From positions 55,999 through 119,998 of IMG/VR virus record IMGVR_UViG_3300027747_000967: a stretch of 64,000 bases of DNA. One strand, written 5' to 3'. Shown here one piece after another: positions 3,536 to 56,002 of this stretch; position 1 is the first letter of the stretch; the number at the start of each line of letters is the position of its first letter. The stretch comes from a virus. The notes beneath the pieces are model-generated. The model saw nothing but the letters and a program-made list of their open reading frames with translations, had not been told where the DNA came from and ran no database searches. The position numbers and the translations under genes are program-made.

Positions 3536-5376
3536 TTTTTTCCTTTAATCCAATCGTCAGGTATCTTACCATGTTTCTTTTTAAAATCGTTATGTAAATC
3601 TTTGCCGGTAATTCCATGTTTAACAGCAATTTTTTTCATTAAACTATCAATTGAATCATAACTATGACTATCTAACTTCTGTAAACCTTTTTCTAATTCT
3701 ACTACACAGTCCTCATTAAATTTCTTCTTACCTTTTTTCTTAATGATGACACCAACATTTCTATTTAAATCTTTATAGGTATCCATACCTTCTTTGTTGC
3801 TAGCACCACCTAAAACACCACCTAAACCAGATTCAACATCATTTTGAAAACCATTATATTCTTTAAATGTTCTCAACTTCTTCTTTTTAGGTACATCATA
3901 ATCACTACTTAAAGGATTTACAGAACCACCACCTGGCATTGCGTTACTAGCAGGACTTGCATTACTATATTCTACTGTCTCTCCCATGCCACCTAATCCA
4001 GCACCACCAGTTAATCCCGAACCATTAGTTCTCGTATTCCATTCTCCACCTAAACCAGTTGGTCTTACAGATTTAGGTTCTTTACCTGAAGTATCGCCAC
4101 CTTTTAATCTTTTCTTTTTATCATTATCATAATTAAAATTGGGTTCTTTAGGTAAAGGCAATGCTCTTAAAATAGGTTTACTTTCTGTCAATACACCCCT
4201 ATTCCTTTTCAACCATCCTTCTGCTACATCGGTAAATCTGTTGGAATCTAAAAAGAGGTTTGTATTTTCATATACTGTATGAATATCCTCTTCCTTGGTA
4301 TCTAGGTTTCCTGTGTTGTCAAAGCCTATAAATGTCTCAAAAATTTCATAAAAACTATTAATATTTTTTTGCGATTTATTCCATTTGTGATATCGAGCAG
4401 ATTCATTCATCATTTTAGACAATGATTCATTTCTTTGTTTACTAATTTCATTGGTTGTTCCAACAAAAATCATCATGGTTTCGTAACCAAGTTCTTCAAG
4501 TTCTTCTTTAATATAAGAAACTTTTTCATAATCGTCCGCAGGTCCATTAATGATTAGTGGGCTTCTTCTGCGAATTGACTCTCTACGATAATCGTTGGTT
4601 TTTTCGGATAGTTTTTGTTTATCACCAAGAAAATCAATAGCTTGCGTAAAATTAATTTCAGTCATTTTACTCTCAGCAATGGCTTCACGGATAATAATGT
4701 CTTTACCTGAACCTGGACCACCAGTTAGAAAGATTGCCTTGAATGAACCACGATATATTTGTTCATTTAATCCCATGCCTTTACGGACATCATGCATCAA
4801 TTCTTTTGTGTGTTCGTCAGAAACATGAGATGGAACACCTTCACGAAAGCCAGCGAAATTATTATTTTTTGCGTGTTCTCTCATTTTTGTAGCAGACATA
4901 CCTTCTGCACCTTCAGCGTCAGGGTCACGATGACCAGCAGACACAACACTTATCTTTTTGAACTTATAAAAACCGTGTTTACCTTTTACGTCATTGTATT
5001 TGTCCAATGTTGTTTGGAATTCTTTAACACGGTCAGAACCAGCAACTACGATTAGATGGTCATGTCCTTTATTATAAAGTCTGGTAGCATGATGAAAAAT
5101 AGAAGGTTCTTCGGAACTAGAAGATTCAAAATTTGTACCAGGAGAATATCTTCTTAAATGTTTAATTTTTTGTTTGGCAGACAAAGGATTCTTTTTTGTA
5201 TCTTGTGAATGTGATACAATAATATGATGTGGTGCATGATTTTTTTCTGCAACTTCTCTTATTTTATGAATTAACTTTAAATGACCAGTAGTAGGAGGAT
5301 TCATACGACCAAACGCCATCACCACAGGATTATGTGTTTTTTCTATTTCTTCATATAATTCTAAAAATGATTTCAT
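3532..5376 (-). CDS. HIGH-family cytidylyltransferase-like nucleotidyltransferase fused to a P-loop (zeta-toxin/kinase-like) domain
   Basis: FGRMNPPTTGH (HIGH-like), KKNPL, VAGSDR and MSATKMR motifs; second domain AIFLTGGPGSGKD (Walker A). Confidence 0.8.
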   Translation of the reverse strand: MKSFLELYEEIEKTHNPVVMAFGRMNPPTTGHLKLIHKIREVAEKNHAPHHIIVSHSQDTKKNPLSAKQKIKHLRRYSPGTNFESSSSEEPSIFHHATRLYNKGHDHLIVVAGSDRVKEFQTTLDKYNDVKGKHGFYKFKKISVVSAGHRDPDAEGAEGMSATKMREHAKNNNFAGFREGVPSHVSDEHTKELMHDVRKGMGLNEQIYRGSFKAIFLTGGPGSGKDIIIREAIAESKMTEINFTQAIDFLGDKQKLSEKTNDYRRESIRRRSPLIINGPADDYEKVSYIKEELEELGYETMMIFVGTTNEISKQRNESLSKMMNESARYHKWNKSQKNINSFYEIFETFIGFDNTGNLDTKEEDIHTVYENTNLFLDSNRFTDVAEGWLKRNRGVLTESKPILRALPLPKEPNFNYDNDKKKRLKGGDTSGKEPKSVRPTGLGGEWNTRTNGSGLTGGAGLGGMGETVEYSNASPASNAMPGGGSVNPLSSDYDVPKKKKLRTFKEYNGFQNDVESGLGGVLGGASNKEGMDTYKDLNRNVGVIIKKKGKKKFNEDCVVELEKGLQKLDSHSYDSIDSLMKKIAVKHGITGKDLHNDFKKKHGKIPDDWIKGKK

Positions 5377-17496: not shown

Positions 17497-18612
17497 TTAT
17501 CTTATAATCTGTATATCTTTACCTGAAGTCCATACTTCAAGTTCGGTTCTTAATCGTCCTTCTTTTTGAAGGGTCTCATATCTATTTATAGCTTTATTCC
17601 GCCACCATTCTACAATATTACCAAGTTCATGTTTATCATAGTTATCGCCTTTTACCAATTGCTCGGCCTTACCATTCATGTAGTCAATCATATTAGAAAA
17701 ACCATAATCTGACACATAATATCTTTTGTGTTCTGTCAACTTCTTAGCGTTCTCAATCGTTAAACTGAATGCCTCCCCTTCAGAACTACCTTTAAGTGCT
17801 GCTTTAGTCATAGATATAATCTTAGTAAATGTTCTTAATTTCCTACTTGTAGTAGATTCATCTTCTTCTAAAATATCTCCACCAACTCTTGCTTCAACAT
17901 ATTCTTTTAAATCTGTATATCTTTTACCATTCATCATAGGTACAAAATCAGATACAGTTAAACCTTTATACCGAATGAATGGTTTCATACCATCATATTG
18001 AGATACTTGTTTTGTTGAACCATAAAGACTTGTTGTTTCAAACAAACAAAGATTCATATTATACTTTTTGTTTACCATTTCTCTTACGGTATGTGATGTG
18101 CAGATGGCGGCCAATAGTTTACCACCAAGATAATTAAATCCAAATGGCTGTGCTGGTACAATTGCAAATCCCATAATTGTTGATTCATTAAATCGTTTTG
18201 TTGATACAGGATTCTGTATCCAAACTTGTCCAAGCATATCATTACGAGGTTTCATATAGATAACAGGTGATGCTAAACGAATTAAACCTAGAATCTTTCC
18301 TGAGTTTTTTTCCTTGACAGCAAATGGTATATTTCTGCCGACAGGTGCTCTATTTACATGAGAAGAAGTAATCGCTAATAATGTATCCCATTGTTGTATT
18401 GGTATTTCACCAATTTCAATATCCATATCTTTTGGGTGCATTGTAAAGTCTGAGAACAAATCATCTTCGGGAGGCCATAAAGCAGAAGTTTGAAAGTTAG
18501 AAACATGGTTAATCTTTTCTTCTCTCATATATTCTTCAATACTACCATAATTACTAAAGTAATCGTGAAATACTTTTGATACATGAATTGCCGCATCTCT
18601 CTCTAATTTCAT
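17497..18612 (-). CDS. DUF4338 (DruA-like) domain protein, paralogue 1
   Basis: VGRN, VPAQPFGFNYLGGKLLA, FETTSLYG, SQYDGM. Confidence 0.7.
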   Translation of the reverse strand: MKLERDAAIHVSKVFHDYFSNYGSIEEYMREEKINHVSNFQTSALWPPEDDLFSDFTMHPKDMDIEIGEIPIQQWDTLLAITSSHVNRAPVGRNIPFAVKEKNSGKILGLIRLASPVIYMKPRNDMLGQVWIQNPVSTKRFNESTIMGFAIVPAQPFGFNYLGGKLLAAICTSHTVREMVNKKYNMNLCLFETTSLYGSTKQVSQYDGMKPFIRYKGLTVSDFVPMMNGKRYTDLKEYVEARVGGDILEEDESTTSRKLRTFTKIISMTKAALKGSSEGEAFSLTIENAKKLTEHKRYYVSDYGFSNMIDYMNGKAEQLVKGDNYDKHELGNIVEWWRNKAINRYETLQKEGRLRTELEVWTSGKDIQIIR

Positions 18613-24651: not shown

Positions 24652-24960
24652 TTAACCTGTGATTAATTGTTTTGATGGAAGAACGATACCTGAACCAAAG
24701 ATTTGATTATAGTTATTTACAAAATCTTCTGCTGGTTCATAAGAGTATACTACATTCTTCTTAGCGATGGCAATAGTGGCACCTTTCTTTTGTGGTGCAT
24801 GAAGTGGAAATGGAGCAAAGCCAATGTTGGGTTGTCCGTCTTTACCACGAACTACAGCAATACCTACAGGGTTTGATAACACATATTCAGTTTCAGATTG
24901 TGATTCAATCTCACCTAAAACTTCTTCACCGTTAATTAATTTTAAGACTTGAATATTCAT
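24652..24960 (-). CDS. Small Sm-like-fold hypothetical protein
   Basis: KLINGEEVLG ... YNQIFGSGIVLP pattern common upstream of gene 43 in T4-like phages. Confidence 0.55.
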   Translation of the reverse strand: MNIQVLKLINGEEVLGEIESQSETEYVLSNPVGIAVVRGKDGQPNIGFAPFPLHAPQKKGATIAIAKKNVVYSYEPAEDFVNNYNQIFGSGIVLPSKQLITG

Positions 24961-24977
24961 AATTTTCCTTTGTTGAA

Positions 24978-25052
24978 TGGAGCGGATAGTCAGATTTGAA
25001 CTGACGACATTTTCGTTGGCAACGAAACATTCTACCCCTGAATTATACCCGC
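24978..25052 (-). tRNA. tRNA-Gly(GCC)
   Basis: GCGGGTA/TATCCGC acceptor, anticodon loop TTGCCAA, TTCAAAT T-loop, TCCA end. Confidence 0.92.
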
Positions 25053-25060
25053 ATGATACT

Positions 25061-25089
25061 ATTATATAATACTTATGAACGATTGTAAA
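25061..25089 (-). promoter_or_regulatory. Sigma70-like promoter for tRNA-Gly
   Basis: TTTACA-17-TATAAT. Confidence 0.65.
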
Positions 25090-25129
25090 GCACTATATAA
25101 TAATATACCACATTAAAAAAGAGAACAAA

Positions 25130-25411
25130 ATGAAAAAAACTATACTCAGTTTGTTATTTGTACCTATATTATCTTTTTCTCAAATCTCAGCACAAAAACC
25201 AGTCGCTTGTTTTCCAATGGATTATTTACAAAAAGAATTAAAAAAAGGCGAAGAAACACCTTTATTAATTTCAAAAAATAAAATGACCAACGAATCTACA
25301 ATCATTGTATTCAAAAATGAAAAAAATGGAACATGGACTATTATTGAATTCAAAGATGATTTTGGATGTGTTTTAGGTTTTGGTGTTGATAAAACAGGAA
25401 AATCTATTTAA
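25130..25411 (+). CDS. Small exported protein (signal peptide, two Cys)
   Basis: MKKTILSLLFVPILSFSQ leader; fills the gap between tRNA genes; the only credible plus-strand CDS. Confidence 0.7.
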   Translation: MKKTILSLLFVPILSFSQISAQKPVACFPMDYLQKELKKGEETPLLISKNKMTNESTIIVFKNEKNGTWTIIEFKDDFGCVLGFGVDKTGKSI

Positions 25412-25412
25412 T

Positions 25413-25486
25413 TGGTAGCGGGACCTGGATTTGCACCAAGAACTAAGGCTTATGAGGCCATTGTGATACTCTTTCACTATCCCGCA
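25413..25486 (-). tRNA. tRNA-Met(CAT), initiator-like
   Basis: Loop CTCATAA; unpaired U1:U72; T-loop TGCAAAT; ACCA end. Confidence 0.8.
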
Positions 25487-25496
25487 ATAGAAATTG

Positions 25497-25565
25497 TGGA
25501 GCGGTGTCTTTGAGTTGCACAAAGATAATTAAGAGGGAATCTCAATTTGTTCTCCAACCCACCGC
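25497..25565 (-). tRNA. Non-canonical tRNA-Gly(TCC)-like RNA
   Basis: 6-bp acceptor, 6-bp T-stem, 8-bp anticodon stem, 3-bp D-arm, U73-CCA. Confidence 0.6.
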
Positions 25566-25571
25566 ATATTC

Positions 25572-25715
25572 TTAATTTAATGTTATCTGCTCGATTTAGG
25601 GGTCTGGTGCTTCCATCCCATAGCGAATAAGCAGTTATCTCAGGACCTATTCCTCGCCAGTTAGACCCGAATAGTTAATACGTCTATTAACGATACCTTG
25701 ATAACACTAAATTAA
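25572..25715 (-). ncRNA. Structured RNA closed by a 16-bp stem
   Basis: TTAATTTAGTGTTATC/GATAACATTAAATTAA (G-U wobble only on the minus strand); internal GTTAATA/TATTAAC and GGGTCT/AGACCC helices. Confidence 0.65.
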
Positions 25716-25798
25716 AAATCCCGCTTACCGTTTGCGGGGTCATCATACCAGATTACTCGGTTCTATGACGGTCACAACTTGCTGTTTCTCAACAGTAG
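25711..25798 (-). ncRNA. Small promoter-proximal RNA with three hairpins
   Basis: CTGTT-GAGA-AACAG, GTCAT..ATGAC, CCCGC..GCGGG followed by ATTTTT. Confidence 0.45.
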
Positions 25799-25803
25799 AT
25801 ACT

Positions 25804-25832
25804 AGTATAACATTATATATATCAAAAGTCAA
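25804..25832 (-). promoter_or_regulatory. Sigma70-like promoter with extended -10
   Basis: TTGACT-17-TATACT with TG at the extended -10 position. Confidence 0.75.
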
Positions 25833-25851
25833 GCGACTTTTTGGTATACTT

Positions 25852-25929
25852 TGGAGCAACGGGTCAGATTTGAACTGACGGCTTTACGGCTTTGCAGGCC
25901 GTTGCATTTGACCACTCTGCCACCGTTGC
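25852..25929 (-). tRNA. tRNA-Cys(GCA)
   Basis: GCAACGG/CCGTTGC acceptor, loop CTGCAAA, U73-CCA. Confidence 0.92.
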
Positions 25930-25937
25930 ATAATGAA

Positions 25938-26044
25938 TTTGTAGTAGGCATGAACACAATCATATTAGTTTGCGCTTCGATATTTAACGCCACTTGCGTG
26001 GTTCCGCAACACCTTTTACATATCATCACGATAGTTACTACAAA
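25938..26044 (-). ncRNA. Stem-closed inter-tRNA RNA
   Basis: TTTGTAGTA/TACTACAAA terminal stem; internal TTGCG/CGCAA hairpin. Confidence 0.45.
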
Positions 26045-26046
26045 AC

Positions 26047-26122
26047 TGGTGCCCCATGTCCGACTCGAACAGACCACCTACTGATTACAAATCAGTTACT
26101 CTACCAGATGAGCTAATGGGGC
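26047..26122 (-). tRNA. tRNA-Thr(TGT)
   Basis: GCCCCAT/ATGGGGC acceptor, ACTGA-TTTGTAA-TCAGT anticodon arm, ACCA end. Confidence 0.93.
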
Positions 26123-26178
26123 AATTGTATCCTATTATATACAATAACTCAAATTAATGCACATAATAGGATACAATT
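26123..26178. repeat. Perfect 16-bp inverted repeat overlapping the 3' end of the small ORF
   Basis: aattgtatcctattat (26123-26138) / ataataggatacaatt (26163-26178). Confidence 0.9.
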
Positions 26179-26299
26179 TTTTAGATTTCTCTTTACGTCT
26201 TAAAGCTTTGTTACTTTTTTTATGACTACCCGCTTTACGAAACAATGCCAATTTGACAAGATAGTTTCGTTCTTTGGGAGTAGAATCTTTCTTTTTCAT
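26135..26299 (-). CDS. 54-aa basic protein, ArfA-like candidate
   Basis: AAGGAGAG SD; MKKKDSTPKERNYLVKLALFRKAGSHKKSNKALRRKEKSKKLYPIMCINLSYCI; below the ORF-track length cutoff. Confidence 0.65.
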   Translation of the reverse strand: MKKKDSTPKERNYLVKLALFRKAGSHKKSNKALRRKEKSKKLYPIMCINLSYCI

Positions 26300-26316
26300 C
26301 TTACTCTCCTTAAAAT

Positions 26317-26546
26317 TAGGACGGGCTACTTCCTGTCATAGAAGCCCCCGATTGGAATTCATCGTTAGCCATATTCCCGATATGTAATGGCAAACATTGT
26401 CAATTAATAAGGGTAATGTGACAACCCACTTGCGTAAGCAGAGCAAGATAACCCCCGATTTAAAGCTCGGCAACTTATGACAACTGATTGGCCGGCCCCA
26501 CTCATGGGATACCATTTAATCTAGGCTTTCTTCGTGCTATATCCTA
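26317..26546 (-). ncRNA. About 230-nt structured RNA or leader
   Basis: GC-enriched and ORF-free; TAGGAT/GTCCTA closing helix; AATCGGGGG twice; TGTCATA/TATGACA possible pseudoknot. Confidence 0.55.
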
Positions 26547-26557
26547 GAACCAAAACT

Positions 26558-26634
26558 TGGCGGTCTGTATCGGACTTGAACCGATGGTCTCCTCCGTGAC
26601 AGGGAGGCGATTTAACCAACTAATCTAACAAACC
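26558..26634 (-). tRNA. tRNA-Asp(GTC)
   Basis: CCTCC-CTGTCAC-GGAGG anticodon arm, G73-CCA. Confidence 0.93.
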
Positions 26635-26729
26635 ATATTGAAGCACACTATTGAGATTCCACTTTTCAAGTCAGGGTCCGGATGACCAAGCGCCGCTTCT
26701 CGCAGGTAGGGAATAATGTGCTTCAATAT
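26635..26729 (-). ncRNA. Stem-closed inter-tRNA RNA (18-bp stem)
   Basis: ATATTGAAGCACATTATT/AATAGTGTGCTTCAATAT (U-G wobble on the minus strand), exactly filling the Glu-Asp spacer. Confidence 0.6.
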
Positions 26730-26803
26730 GGCGCTCGGTACCAGATTCGAACTGGTGTGACCGCCGTGAAAGGGCGATATCCTAACCGCTAGATGAACCG
26801 AGC
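26729..26803 (-). tRNA. tRNA-Glu(TTC)
   Basis: GCTCGGT/ACCGAGC acceptor, loop CTTTCAC, G73-CCA. Confidence 0.93.
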
Positions 26804-26829
26804 ATATTTACAACATTTACAACATGAAT

Positions 26830-26841
26830 TTTTAAAGAACA
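26830..26841 (-). promoter_or_regulatory. boxA-like antitermination element
   Basis: TGTTCTTTAAAA versus rrn boxA TGCTCTTTAACA, between the promoter and the first tRNA. Confidence 0.6.
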
Positions 26842-26862
26842 GTTATTACTTAATATACAACC

Positions 26863-26890
26863 ATTATACATGAACCACCGAATAAGTCAA
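26863..26890 (-). promoter_or_regulatory. Sigma70-like promoter of the tRNA operon
   Basis: TTGACT-16-TATAAT. Confidence 0.75.
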
Positions 26891-26904
26891 TCATTATTTT
26901 ACTA

Positions 26905-26946: not shown

Positions 26947-27459
26947 TTATTGATATTGTTTCCAACCAATAGGTTCTTCCTCTATTGGGTCATCTGGATT
27001 ACAAATGCCTTCAAATACTTCCCATAATTTTTCTTGAACTACAAATTTACGAAATAAACCACCTTCCATTCCGTATGCTTCTATTTCCCAAGGTTGACTC
27101 CAATAATCCAAATCTTCTGCTACATGAGCACCTTTCCAACGAGTTAGGTTATCATTGGTTTCACTATAAGCGTATTGTTTAATGTGAACCATCTCATGGC
27201 CTAAAGATTTAAGAATATTTCTTCCACCAATCTTTGGATTCATTTCAATCAAAAAGTTTCTGGCTTTACCTAAATCTGTTCTTTCTTCAACGGAAGCATA
27301 TCCATAAACATCATCAATCTTTTTATTAAAGATAACTTTGATACAGATATTTTCCAACATTTTTGCGGTAAGTAATTCTTGCGCATAGAATAAAATAGCC
27401 CTTTTGACATAAGGACGGAATCGCTCTTTATCGGGACAACCAACTATACTTAACTTCAT
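26947..27459 (-). CDS. HExxH zincin-like metallopeptidase-domain protein
   Basis: LGHEMVHIKQY, PWEIEAY. Confidence 0.7.
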   Translation of the reverse strand: MKLSIVGCPDKERFRPYVKRAILFYAQELLTAKMLENICIKVIFNKKIDDVYGYASVEERTDLGKARNFLIEMNPKIGGRNILKSLGHEMVHIKQYAYSETNDNLTRWKGAHVAEDLDYWSQPWEIEAYGMEGGLFRKFVVQEKLWEVFEGICNPDDPIEEEPIGWKQYQ

Positions 27460-33061: not shown

Positions 33062-34327
33062 TTAACGCCCAACTTGTGGTAAATATTTCGCCTTGGTTTC
33101 TTCCCAAGTTAGGTAAATAAGGTCATCATAAAATAATGATTCGTATGATACCGTATTCTTTTTCTTTAACATGGAAATACGGCCTTTGGCATATTTTGTT
33201 TTCCACAAATTGGATAATGTTTGTTCGCTGGTATCAAACATTTTTAATAATTTTTCTTCTGGTATTTGTTTACAAAGATATTCATTAGTATTATAATACA
33301 AAGGCGAAAAATAAATTCCACGCTGGTGTTCGCTACGAATCAGTTCTTTAGGTATACCAAGTTTAGGATAGGCAAAGTTTAATGAACGATTTTTATGGTC
33401 ACGCTTGAGTGGTAGACCTTGAGTGTTCTTTGCGTCCCACCATTCAAAATATTTTCTAGGATAATTTTCTTTAATCCATTCGTAAACCATTTTAGATGTA
33501 GTTCTTTTAGGTTCAAATACAACTGAACCTGATGAGAATCCCATCTTGTTCCAATGTTCTAGTCCATCATACTGAGAAAGACCATTAGACTTAGTGTTGC
33601 CATAAAGAGAAGTTGTTGTAACTCCGACAAGGACATCTTCATATCTTTCTTTCCAATCTTTTTGAACTGTATCAGATAAACATAATAATGCAAGTAACTT
33701 ACCGCCCATATAATTATAACCGAGAGGTTGCATAGGAACGATTGTAGAACCAATGGCCGTATGATTAATCATGCCCTGTTGTGTTTTTACATCTCTTGGC
33801 CAGCCAATTGCTTTATCTCTTGGCGTTAAATCAAGAAAGTCGGAAGAAATACAAATGACACCAAGATACTTGCCTGTTACTTCATCAATGATTGTATAAA
33901 ATAGATTACGACCAATGTTTGAATTATTTTTCATTGTAGAAGAAAAGGTACGAATGGCATTCCATGTTTCTGCTAAAGGACCATTCGATAAAACAAGTTT
34001 TGGTTTTAATAAAATATAATCATCAGGATTTTTTGGCATCCAAAAATTAGATTTAACTTGTTCAATAAGTTTTTCTTGTTCAGCATTTACCATTTGCATT
34101 TCTGTACCAAACAATGTATCTACTTCTTGAACAGGATATCTTTCTTTAACTTCACACCACTTTTGGTACAAAGTATATTCTTTGACATCCATTTTAGAAG
34201 CGTAAGTTAAATCTTCAATTAACTGATTTTTAAGTTGTTCAGTATCAATGTGTTTAAAGGAAGAAACAGGATTCTTTTCTTGCCATTCTACCCATTGTTT
34301 TTCAACAAATTCAATTGGAGTTGCCAT
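33062..34327 (-). CDS. DUF4338 (DruA-like) domain protein, paralogue 2
   Basis: IGRN, VPMQPLGYNYMGGKLLA, VTTTSLYG, SQYDGL, RGIY. Confidence 0.7.
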   Translation of the reverse strand: MATPIEFVEKQWVEWQEKNPVSSFKHIDTEQLKNQLIEDLTYASKMDVKEYTLYQKWCEVKERYPVQEVDTLFGTEMQMVNAEQEKLIEQVKSNFWMPKNPDDYILLKPKLVLSNGPLAETWNAIRTFSSTMKNNSNIGRNLFYTIIDEVTGKYLGVICISSDFLDLTPRDKAIGWPRDVKTQQGMINHTAIGSTIVPMQPLGYNYMGGKLLALLCLSDTVQKDWKERYEDVLVGVTTTSLYGNTKSNGLSQYDGLEHWNKMGFSSGSVVFEPKRTTSKMVYEWIKENYPRKYFEWWDAKNTQGLPLKRDHKNRSLNFAYPKLGIPKELIRSEHQRGIYFSPLYYNTNEYLCKQIPEEKLLKMFDTSEQTLSNLWKTKYAKGRISMLKKKNTVSYESLFYDDLIYLTWEETKAKYLPQVGR

Positions 34328-55118: not shown

Positions 55119-56002
55119 TATATTTTACCTATTGGATTTATTTCTGTTGAAACCAAAACTGTATTTGCTTCACCTTTAATTGTAATATTATCATAACCTT
55201 CTTTTTTCGCTGGACTCTCCAACGGATCAAAATTACCAAGAGACCATAAAGCACCGCTGGTTGAACCTACAATATTATTATTAGCTATAAATTCACCAAA
55301 AATGTTGGTAACAGATAGTGTCTTTGAAGAAGGTATCCAACTTTGAACGGTAGCAGAAGCAAAAATATTATTTGCTGTACCATCTGATGATTGATATACA
55401 AATTCTTTAATATTGTAATTAATATTATTTCCTGAACTTATATGTAAATGTATCGTGTAAGCAGAATCAGTAACAACAGAATCAATATCTTCAATACCAG
55501 TAGAAATAACTTCTTGTGAAAATCTGTATTTCTCTAACTCTAATTCATAAAAATAAGGAACTTTTCTACCTAACATAAAGAAATCTTTTGTTTGATTGGT
55601 AAATTTAATTTCAAATAATTCACCTGTACCATTTAAAAAAGGTATGTAAATTAAATCACCTTCTCTTGGTCGTGTAAAACTATTTTGTGGAACTCTTTCT
55701 GAAAATGACCTTCTTGAAACAATTACATTGACATTATTTCTAATTTCTAAACCAAACTTAGAGAAGAATTCTTTTTCACCCAAATATTCCATTGAATTTG
55801 AAAGATACATTTCTAAAGGAAAAGCAGATTCAAATTTTTTGACAGGATCCTCACCTAATAATAAATCACGAGCTTGGTCGTTATCATTAGGTAGATAATA
55901 GGTGTCAAATCCTTGAACTTTGATAGATTCACATATTAAATCTTCAATGACTCGTTGTTCGGATAGACCGCCATAAGAATTAAAATAAAAATTTGTAGGC
56001 AT
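55118..56002 (-). CDS. gp14: Neck protein
   Basis: FSKFGLEIR, RPREGDLIY. Confidence 0.93.
   Translation of the reverse strand: MPTNFYFNSYGGLSEQRVIEDLICESIKVQGFDTYYLPNDNDQARDLLLGEDPVKKFESAFPLEMYLSNSMEYLGEKEFFSKFGLEIRNNVNVIVSRRSFSERVPQNSFTRPREGDLIYIPFLNGTGELFEIKFTNQTKDFFMLGRKVPYFYELELEKYRFSQEVISTGIEDIDSVVTDSAYTIHLHISSGNNINYNIKEFVYQSSDGTANNIFASATVQSWIPSSKTLSVTNIFGEFIANNNIVGSTSGALWSLGNFDPLESPAKKEGYDNITIKGEANTVLVSTEINPIGKI

Follow-up and report, generated by a model that had tools for sequence, protein, structure and literature searches.

The mini tRNA-Gly gene and its locus

The window analysed here, a 64,000-nucleotide (nt) stretch of the IMG/VR virus record IMGVR_UViG_3300027747_000967 (positions 55,999 to 119,998), carries on its minus strand a tRNA cluster with six ordinary members (Glu, Asp, Thr, Cys, Met and Gly(GCC)) and, within this cluster, a gene for an unusually small tRNA-Gly-like RNA of 69 nt at 25497..25565, referred to below as the mini RNA. 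On the same strand, 7.5 kilobases (kb) upstream of the mini RNA, an open reading frame (ORF) at 33062..34327 encodes a 421-residue protein of the DruA/DUF4338 family with a central GNAT domain. The record spans 119,998 bases and is estimated to be 71% complete, and among the genes of the genome are those for UvsX, a clamp loader and a T4-type DNA polymerase that is split and has an HNH insert. The best cultured match of the DNA polymerase is a cyanophage (43.5% identity), and the nearest cultured relatives of the DruA-like protein are encoded by the Pelagibacter phages Mosig (59%) and HTVC008M (55%); the DNA sequencing runs containing this stretch carry the labels freshwater, lake or aquatic.

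Read on the minus strand, the mini RNA begins with a 6-base-pair (bp) acceptor stem, GCGGUG/CACCGC (RNA positions 1-6/60-65, corresponding to 25565-25560 / 25506-25501), which is joined by a single connector base, G7, to a D arm (RNA 8-17, 25558-25549) consisting of a 3-bp stem, GUU/AAC, and the loop GGAG, and followed by an A. The anticodon arm (RNA 19-39, 25547-25527) has an 8-bp stem and the loop UUCCC (25539-25535), and one variable base separates it from the T arm (RNA 41-59, 25525-25507), with its 6-bp stem UCUUUG/CAAAGA and loop UGCAACU. The 3' end consists of the equivalent of U73 (25500) and an encoded CCA (25499-25497), and the acceptor end carries G1-C72, C2-G71 and G3-C70. The minimum free energy fold is this same cloverleaf (-19.8 kcal/mol, z = -2.98, equalled by none of 200 shuffles), and it is identical to the one drawn in an earlier note on this DNA, which had proposed a 6/6 arrangement with a UUCCC stem-loop, a miniature D arm and one variable base. 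The 6/6 branch may alternatively be read as 7/5 with a G7-A66 mismatch, and true 7/5 forms are found among the relatives.

Standard tools overlook this gene: ARAGORN left it uncalled in its standard, relaxed (ps80) and mitochondrial modes, and the Rfam tRNA model RF00005, with a gathering threshold of 29 bits, did not match it even at E <= 10. The covariance model built in the course of this work (R1) scores it at 73.9 bits (E = 2.7e-16).

Extent of the family

The identical 69-nt sequence occurs in a second contig (L002) with different flanks, and divergent copies were recovered by searching 80 loci around relatives of the DNA polymerase with nhmmer, regular expressions and our own covariance model. 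The family comprises 91 distinct sequences of 65-70 nt from 201 loci, all in uncultured T4-like phages related to Pelagibacter phages, and a degenerate pattern of its commonest class matches at least 119 IMG/VR stretches. It is represented in three 100%-complete genomes (G002, G003 and G006), with one copy each in G002 and G003 according to a whole-genome search with the model. Every copy is located within a phage tRNA cluster or at its margin and shares its strand, many of the clusters also containing canonical tRNA-Gly(UCC) and/or tRNA-Gly(GCC), and tandem pairs of two differing mini RNAs are found in many contigs. Two main loop types can be distinguished: class I, to which the window copy ('type A') belongs, has the loop NNCCC, and class II has the loop GUCCA within UGUCCAA, which is the loop of tRNA-Gly(UCC) with U33 changed to G.

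Outside these phages the searches yielded little. The class I pattern matched two GC-rich stretches among 185,579 prokaryote genomes (one per species), the family fold being absent from both; blastn with three types of mini RNA against 50,697 deposited phage records returned nothing relevant; and megablast and blastn with the whole tRNA cluster found matches to canonical tRNAs only. A general scan of the loci for short RNAs with an acceptor stem, a T arm and CCA that are unseen by ARAGORN gave 67 candidates, 66 of which belong to this Gly family, and the miniaturization is therefore Gly-specific. We found no published description of such phage mini tRNAs, a point for which the homologue lists in the supplements of PMC13219725 and PMC5389517 may be relevant. 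The mini RNAs constitute a large, selected, tRNA-Gly-derived family that is unannotated and that we have not found described in print.

The sole non-Gly candidate of the scan is a tRNA-Cys-like RNA of 66 nt (L153 4488-4553, minus strand) in which the D arm is reduced, the loop is centred on GCA and the 3' end is UCCA. Two further tRNA-like stretches that ARAGORN does not call lie on the plus strand of L002 (~4466-4557 and 4880-4955), one with a long variable arm and a UGA-centred loop and the other Glu-like with a broken acceptor stem.

Conservation and covariation

Among 17 hand-picked relatives aligned without reference to structure, 98.0% of the alignment cells are paired and 10 of the 21 pairs show two-sided changes, a level that none of 500 shuffles attained. 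The larger alignment of 92 distinct rows, which was fitted to the structure, hence leans towards it, and includes one canonical tRNA-Gly, has 98.9% of its cells paired and compensatory changes in 16 of 20 pairs (0/500 shuffles as high); when the pairing partners are slid, pairing falls to 32-61%. Every pair of the anticodon and D stems shows compensated variation. A relative's contig (run X2) aligned to window positions 25527-25540 shows five differences, which include the replacement of A26-U32 by G-C through two changes and of G23-U35 by G-C through one. The 32-38 pair, an A-U pair on which the pentaloop of the window copy depends, is a standard pair in all 92 rows and occurs as four Watson-Crick types.

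The positions that do not vary include those expected of a substrate of bacterial glycyl-tRNA synthetase (GlyRS). G1-C72, C2-G71, G3-C70, U73, CCA, C35 and C36 are invariant in the aligned rows, and the bacterial Gly identity set, which consists of U73, G1-C72, C2-G71, G3-C70, C35 and C36 (PMC9976931 Table 1), is present in full throughout the family while 16 other pairs have turned over. G4-C69 is found in 90 of the 92 rows; G53-C61 (92/92) and T-loop positions 2 (G) and 5 (A) are also invariant, and A58 is kept. Recognition by GlyRS is strongly suggested by this pattern. The Gly elements that the earlier note had claimed for the window copy (G1-C72, C2-G71 and U73-CCA) are thus present there and shared by the whole family, and its argument that full pairing speaks against simple decay is backed by the covariation, the 17-sequence and 92-row sets both showing compensated changes.

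The canonical 12-pair acceptor/T branch ending in NCCA is found in the family, and is built as 6+6 in the window RNA. Between the T loop and position 72, 46 sequences have a strand of 12 nt and 45 have one of 11 nt, and all of them encode UCCA. A candidate tertiary pair links the last base of the D loop to the third base of the T loop (G-C in 89 rows, A-U in one, U-A in one and unpaired in one), and the retention of this D-loop/T-loop contact suggests that the elbow of the L-shape has been kept.

The features associated with decoding are much altered. At position 33, U occurs in 64 copies, G in 13, C in 11 and A in one; at position 34, A is found 46 times, U 34 times, C eight times and G once, and some near-identical copies differ at this base alone; at position 37 there are 76 copies with C and 13 with A. 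Instead of the canonical 5-bp stem with a 7-nt loop, U33 and a purine at 37, the anticodon stem has 7-8 bp across the family. The connector is a single base (U 44, G 27, A 16, C 2, none 2) and not the canonical U8-N9, the D stem has three pairs instead of four, and the D loop, mostly of 4 nt, ends in AG and lacks G18 G19. The first three T-loop positions are U/A-G-C in place of U54-U55-C56 (TPsiC). Together, the 3-bp D stem and the 7-8-bp anticodon stem come close to the canonical length of this arm. It is likely, judging from these sequence features, that the mini RNA does not decode.

The DruA-like enzyme

DruA/DUF4338 proteins are widespread and form 852 representative clusters. The DruA-like proteins found near the mini RNAs match Pfam DruA (PF14236) at 68-69 bits (69.1 for the window protein), against a cut-off of 27, and the gene is phage-borne and not part of a druABCDE operon, although druB-E were not searched for. 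An AlphaFold2 model calculated with 50 diverse homologues is confident (predicted local distance difference test score 95.8, predicted template modelling score 0.92). Foldseek returned only weak GNAT matches. When the central domain was folded alone and compared by VIA-align with 48,161 chains, the first-ranked match was Mom of phage Mu (8bv8_B; Z 12.0, root-mean-square deviation 4.0, 169/202 residues), followed by a chain at Z 11.0, with FemA at Z 9.8. The authors of PMC12801897 likewise describe a cyanophage homologue of the DruA-like protein as structurally similar to Mu Mom. The near-invariant residues S162, D163, R170, K210 and R336 are candidates only for equivalents of the essential R111, S124 and R151 of Mom.

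Mu Mom, a GNAT enzyme, takes its glycine from Gly-tRNAGly and attaches it to the N6 position of adenine in double-stranded DNA, a rearrangement then giving the carbamoylmethyl base (Silva et al. 2026, PMC13219725). It probably recognizes the acceptor end of the tRNA, and all three Escherichia coli Gly isoacceptors serve it (PMC13219725). No phage-encoded tRNA is mentioned in the portion of that study drawn on here.

To assess the association between the enzyme and the mini RNA, we took 162 mini copies from 141 loci and clustered the ORFs located on the same strand at a distance of up to 2.5 kb. A DruA-like protein of 421-466 residues proved to be the nearest upstream same-strand feature for 31 copies, which span 20 distinct mini sequences, its gene ending 20-67 nt before them. 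When ten phage records were tested, the long DruA-like gene and the mini RNA were both found in six, a seventh had the mini RNA and a DruA-like gene cut by the contig end, and the remaining three, which are fragments, had neither. Little weight can be placed on this agreement, given that the two genes are separated by no more than about 0-17 kb.

The window also encodes, at about 17542-18528 on the minus strand, a shorter paralogue of the DruA-like protein with about 370 residues (Pfam DruA, 33-38 bits). This paralogue was found in all ten of the phage records that were searched, among them the three fragments without a mini RNA.

A tRNA-Gly of seemingly intermediate form in a cultured relative

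In the cultured Pelagibacter phage HTVC008M (KC465899), the DruA-like gene is followed by a gene for a 787-residue 'peptidase' (87395-89749), by cobS and then by the only tRNA gene of the phage. This gene, situated between cobS and the S21 gene and 3.9 kb downstream of the DruA-like gene, encodes a 74-nt tRNA-Gly(ACC) (KC465899 91140-91213; L213:9013-9086) and is absent from the annotated features listed for that stretch. The tRNA has no D-loop GG and a T loop, AGCGUUA, that departs from TPsiC, together with a normal anticodon arm. It resembles the mini RNA in coming from the same phage lineage, in accompanying an enzyme with 55% identity, in its Gly acceptor end and ACC anticodon, in the missing D-loop GG and in its T loop AGCGUUA; it differs in its length of 74 nt, its 5-bp anticodon stem and loop UUACCAA and in being called by both ARAGORN and Rfam (49.5 bits), and it scores only 16.4 bits with the mini model (cmsearch on the locus); an R1 search over the entire records of HTVC008M and Mosig gave no hit and, having missed this gene, carries no information. 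Judged by sequence, the tRNA appears to stand midway from a canonical tRNA-Gly to the mini RNA.

Proposed role

The reading that we favour, tentatively and at a little short of an even chance, is that the mini RNA is a GlyRS-charged, non-decoding carrier of glycine for the DruA/DUF4338 GNAT enzyme of the phage. The mini RNA would be a stable, tRNA-shaped molecule derived from tRNA-Gly and cut from the transcript of the tRNA operon in the same way as its neighbours, and the host synthetase would charge it, all bacterial Gly identity elements and an acceptor/T helix of 11-12 pairs having been kept. The shrunken D arm, the altered elbow, the long anticodon stem and a non-canonical loop, in which U33 is not fixed, position 34 can be any base, 37 is C and 32 pairs with 38, would exclude it from ordinary decoding and thereby leave its glycine free for use outside the ribosome. 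The likeliest recipient would be the DruA/DUF4338 GNAT enzyme encoded by the phage itself, the structural look-alike of Mu Mom, which may transfer glycine to a nucleic acid, most probably to adenine in the phage DNA, as an anti-restriction hypermodification. By analogy with the carriers of the staphylococcal Fem system (PMC7826273), a phage of a streamlined host could in this manner feed a glycyl-transferase without draining translation.

Three guesses had been offered in the earlier note: a non-ribosomal glycyl donor, a decoy for anticodon nucleases and an inhibitor of the synthetase. The first fits best, given that Gly identity is invariant, that the marks of decoding vary, that canonical tRNA-Gly genes share the clusters, that a gene for a Mom-like GNAT often lies directly upstream and that Mu Mom uses Gly-tRNAGly (PMC13219725); the other two become rivals, which are considered below.

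A number of observations weigh against the proposed partnership. Direct adjacency is confined to 31 of the 162 mini copies, the nearest upstream feature of the others being a tRNA (40), the SprT-like gene described below (34), another mini RNA (14) or some other feature (4), with none within 300 nt for 39. In the window itself the two genes are 7.5 kb apart, and a search for a second mini RNA beside the DruA-like gene gave a best score of 8.2 bits, which is noise. The co-presence of the two genes may merely reflect their lying within about 0-17 kb, and phage Mosig is a counter-example to strict coupling, having a DruA-like gene but only tRNA-Pro, tRNA-Arg and tRNA-Leu. The resemblance to Mom, moreover, is seen at the level of the modelled fold only: with the full-length model, VIA-align places Mom 8bv8_B first at Z 9.4 but tied with other GNATs, and many GNATs reach Z 9.4-11 with the domain model. 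Pfam Mom (PF25680) is not matched by the DruA-like protein, a Pfam search at E <= 1 giving DruA alone, and hhalign of the DruA-like family alignment against a Mom alignment gave a probability of 0.1%; neither did BLASTP, hhalign against Mu Mom alone or hmmsearch of the PDB sequences reveal any significant sequence link to Mom. A private carrier would not be required in principle, because Mu Mom accepts all three host isoacceptors (PMC13219725). Finally, the lengths of the anticodon and D stems (7-8 bp + 3 bp) roughly preserve the dimensions of a canonical tRNA and would also suit a ribosomal role.

Such a role is the substance of one alternative, which we consider unlikely: the mini RNA may be a working decoder, a streamlined tRNA-Gly reading GGN that was possibly reshaped to evade anticodon nucleases or other defences targeting tRNA. 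The Gly identity set and NCC at the centre of the loop in all copies agree with it, as do an acceptor/T branch of 11-12 layers and D and anticodon stems of about 10-11 layers together, both near canonical, and the class II loop, which deviates from that of tRNA-Gly(UCC) at U33 only; furthermore, tRNAPyl and mitochondrial tRNASer(UCN) demonstrate that a tRNA can serve in translation with a connector of one base, a D loop of small size and an anticodon stem that is long (PMC7609411). U33, however, is not conserved, 76 of 89 copies have a pyrimidine at position 37 and the 32-38 pair co-varies as a stem pair would. The commonest wobble base of the mini RNAs is A34, which is rare in bacterial tRNAs, and N34 flips between near-identical copies. 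Since canonical Gly isoacceptors are encoded in the same clusters, there is moreover no decoding gap for the mini RNA to fill. Another alternative, to which we assign a rather low probability, is a decoy or sponge: the mini RNA, charged or uncharged, may absorb a host factor that attacks tRNA-Gly, or it may titrate GlyRS. Candidate targets would be an acceptor-end or anticodon nuclease or a TacT-type GNAT toxin acetylating Gly-tRNAGly, the specificity of TacT resting on U73 and G71 (PMC9976931), both of which are invariant in the mini RNAs; the several classes and the frequent tandems of differing copies would fit an arms race, and the restriction of the phenomenon to Gly also favours this reading. 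On the other hand, no such host factor is known, competition by a substrate offers poor protection from a toxin that acts catalytically, C35 and C36 have been retained despite being unneeded by acceptor-end toxins, and the recurrent position right behind the DruA-like gene is left unexplained.

It is highly improbable that the gene is a decaying tRNA-Gly pseudogene or a tRNA-like signal for processing of the neighbouring RNAs by RNase P or RNase Z. The failure of tRNA finders to call it and its location between other RNAs of one transcription unit are what might be expected in that case, but 98.9% of cells are paired and 16 of 20 pairs compensated across 92 sequences, the same 69 nt recur in a second contig with differing flanks, and the invariant C35, C36 and U73 would not be needed by a processing signal, nor would either explanation account for a phenomenon specific to Gly.

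Should the carrier reading be correct, it would provide a virus-encoded RNA dedicated to the non-ribosomal use of an activated amino acid and a natural limit case of tRNA trimming with the status of a synthetase substrate retained. It would also give a concrete biochemical function to the DUF4338/DruA proteins of SAR11-type and cyanobacterial phages and of Druantia defence, and would predict that certain aquatic phages, some of them among the most abundant, carry a DNA hypermodification derived from glycine. At least 119 genes have been overlooked by standard tRNA annotation. A bolder generalization, possible but more doubtful, is that the mini RNA is the first known viral 'cofactor tRNA', whose sole task would be to carry host-activated glycine to a nucleic-acid-aminoacylating DruA/DUF4338 enzyme, and that DruA proteins as a whole, with the product of the unexplained first gene of Druantia type I among them, would thereby be aminoacyl-tRNA-dependent nucleic-acid modifiers.

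Comparison with known systems

In two of the closest known systems, glycine is diverted from charged tRNA. The staphylococcal non-proteinogenic tRNA-Gly species (NP1-3) are glycine donors for FmhB, FemA and FemB (PMC7826273). Like the mini RNA they are additional tRNA-Gly species, charged by the normal GlyRS, as is proposed here for the mini RNA, and they have altered D-loop, T-loop and anticodon-stem features that are thought to weaken their use by EF-Tu and the ribosome and so direct glycine to a transferase of GNAT fold (PMC7826273). They are, however, full-size cellular tRNAs with a normal 7-nt UCC loop that feed peptidoglycan synthesis (PMC7826273), whereas the mini RNA is phage-encoded, measures 65-70 nt and has a 3-bp D stem, a 7-8-bp anticodon stem and variable N33/N34. 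A FemABX transferase (PF02388) was found in none of five phage records, two of them complete, although the enzyme could be encoded by the host. The Mom system of phage Mu shares with the present one a phage GNAT, Mom taking glycine from charged tRNA-Gly and being the best solved match of the DruA-like GNAT domain, but Mu encodes no tRNA and uses any host isoacceptor (PMC13219725). Unlike Mom, the DruA-like protein belongs to Pfam DruA, is about 180 residues longer and has no sequence-profile relationship with it.

In architecture, the mini RNA approaches tRNAPyl and mammalian mitochondrial tRNASer(UCN), in which a single nucleotide joins the acceptor stem to the D stem, the D loop has about 4-5 nt, the anticodon stem is elongated and the variable region is very short (PMC7609411). 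Those tRNAs have anticodon stems of 6 bp and normal 7-nt loops and take part in decoding (PMC7609411); the mini RNA goes further, with a stem of 7-8 bp, a D stem of 3 bp, a T loop with NGC instead of TPsiC and neither U33 nor R37. The allo-tRNAs and other 8/4 or 9/3 tRNAs are likewise natural, in some cases phage-borne, RNAs in which the 12-bp acceptor/T branch is redistributed, but in them it is the acceptor that is lengthened (8/4, 9/3), the identities are Ser, His, Cys or Sec and the anticodon arms are normal (PMC5389517); tRNA-Gly or D-arm-reduced types were not met among the RNAs of this kind in the part of PMC5389517 considered.

The stable RNAs C and D (species 1 and 2) of phage T4 are also unexplained small stable RNAs inside a T4-type tRNA cluster, but with 139 and 119 nt they are much larger. 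A kinship with rnaC and rnaD was considered and rejected, model R1 run with filters off on the T4 tRNA region finding only the canonical tRNA-Gly (17.2 bits) and nothing at either gene.

Probable transcription unit and neighbouring genes

A sigma-70-like promoter at 25804..25832 on the minus strand (TTGACT, a 17-nt spacer, TATACT and a TG), found by a consensus scan in which the number of sites in the region was not above that in shuffles, probably drives a leader, a 144-nt structured RNA, the mini RNA and tRNA-Met. The leader, with hairpins (25716-25800, minus strand), is conserved in L002, where the same promoter and leader are kept upstream of the identical mini RNA. Immediately upstream of the mini RNA, the 144-nt multi-stem RNA (25572..25715, minus strand), which probably shares a transcript with it, has no Rfam match at E <= 10, and this region differs in L002 although the leader is conserved there. 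No RNA run is among the sequencing runs listed as containing this stretch, and two metatranscriptome runs from a sample containing the phage DNA had nothing on 25300-25950, which is uninformative either way.

Ten nucleotides downstream of the mini RNA, an initiator-like tRNA-Met(CAU) is encoded at 25413..25486 on the minus strand, as identified by ARAGORN and Rfam alignment. It has a U1-U72 mismatch and an elbow resembling that of the mini RNA, with no D-loop GG and the T loop UGCAAAU. T loops of the UGC(A/G)A type occur in 28 of the 137 tRNA-Met genes of the loci and in none of the other 25 anticodon classes called by ARAGORN. About 150 nt past tRNA-Met, a terminator-like hairpin followed by a T run (25244..25263, minus strand) is likely, by its sequence, to mark where the transcription unit ends; the consensus scan gave no other site of this kind in 24900-26900, a count not above that in shuffles. 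A 93-residue ORF at 25130-25411 (plus strand), between tRNA-Met and tRNA-Gly, has no family match, overlaps this hairpin and is probably not a gene.

The first gene upstream of the tRNA cluster (26947-27459, minus strand) encodes a 170-residue HExxH protein (phrog_16532/10499, weakly SprT-like). In 69 of the 141 loci an orthologue is encoded no more than 2.5 kb upstream of the mini RNA, and 34 copies have it as their closest upstream neighbour, at a distance of up to 300 nt. Its candidacy as a partner of the mini RNA was rejected: since it also precedes the cluster in the window, where the mini RNA is five tRNAs away, it was judged to be simply the gene that precedes the tRNA cluster.

On the other side, a conserved small basic ORF of 58-104 residues with the motif KPRLGPLNL and no family match starts about 20 nt past the mini RNA or overlaps it (L014:1338-1544, L017:2815-2991 and about 45 further loci). 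A 787-residue 'peptidase' (phrog_459) with HExxH near its N-terminus is encoded on the same strand within 2.5 kb downstream of the mini RNA in 31 loci (for example L105:4173-6536).

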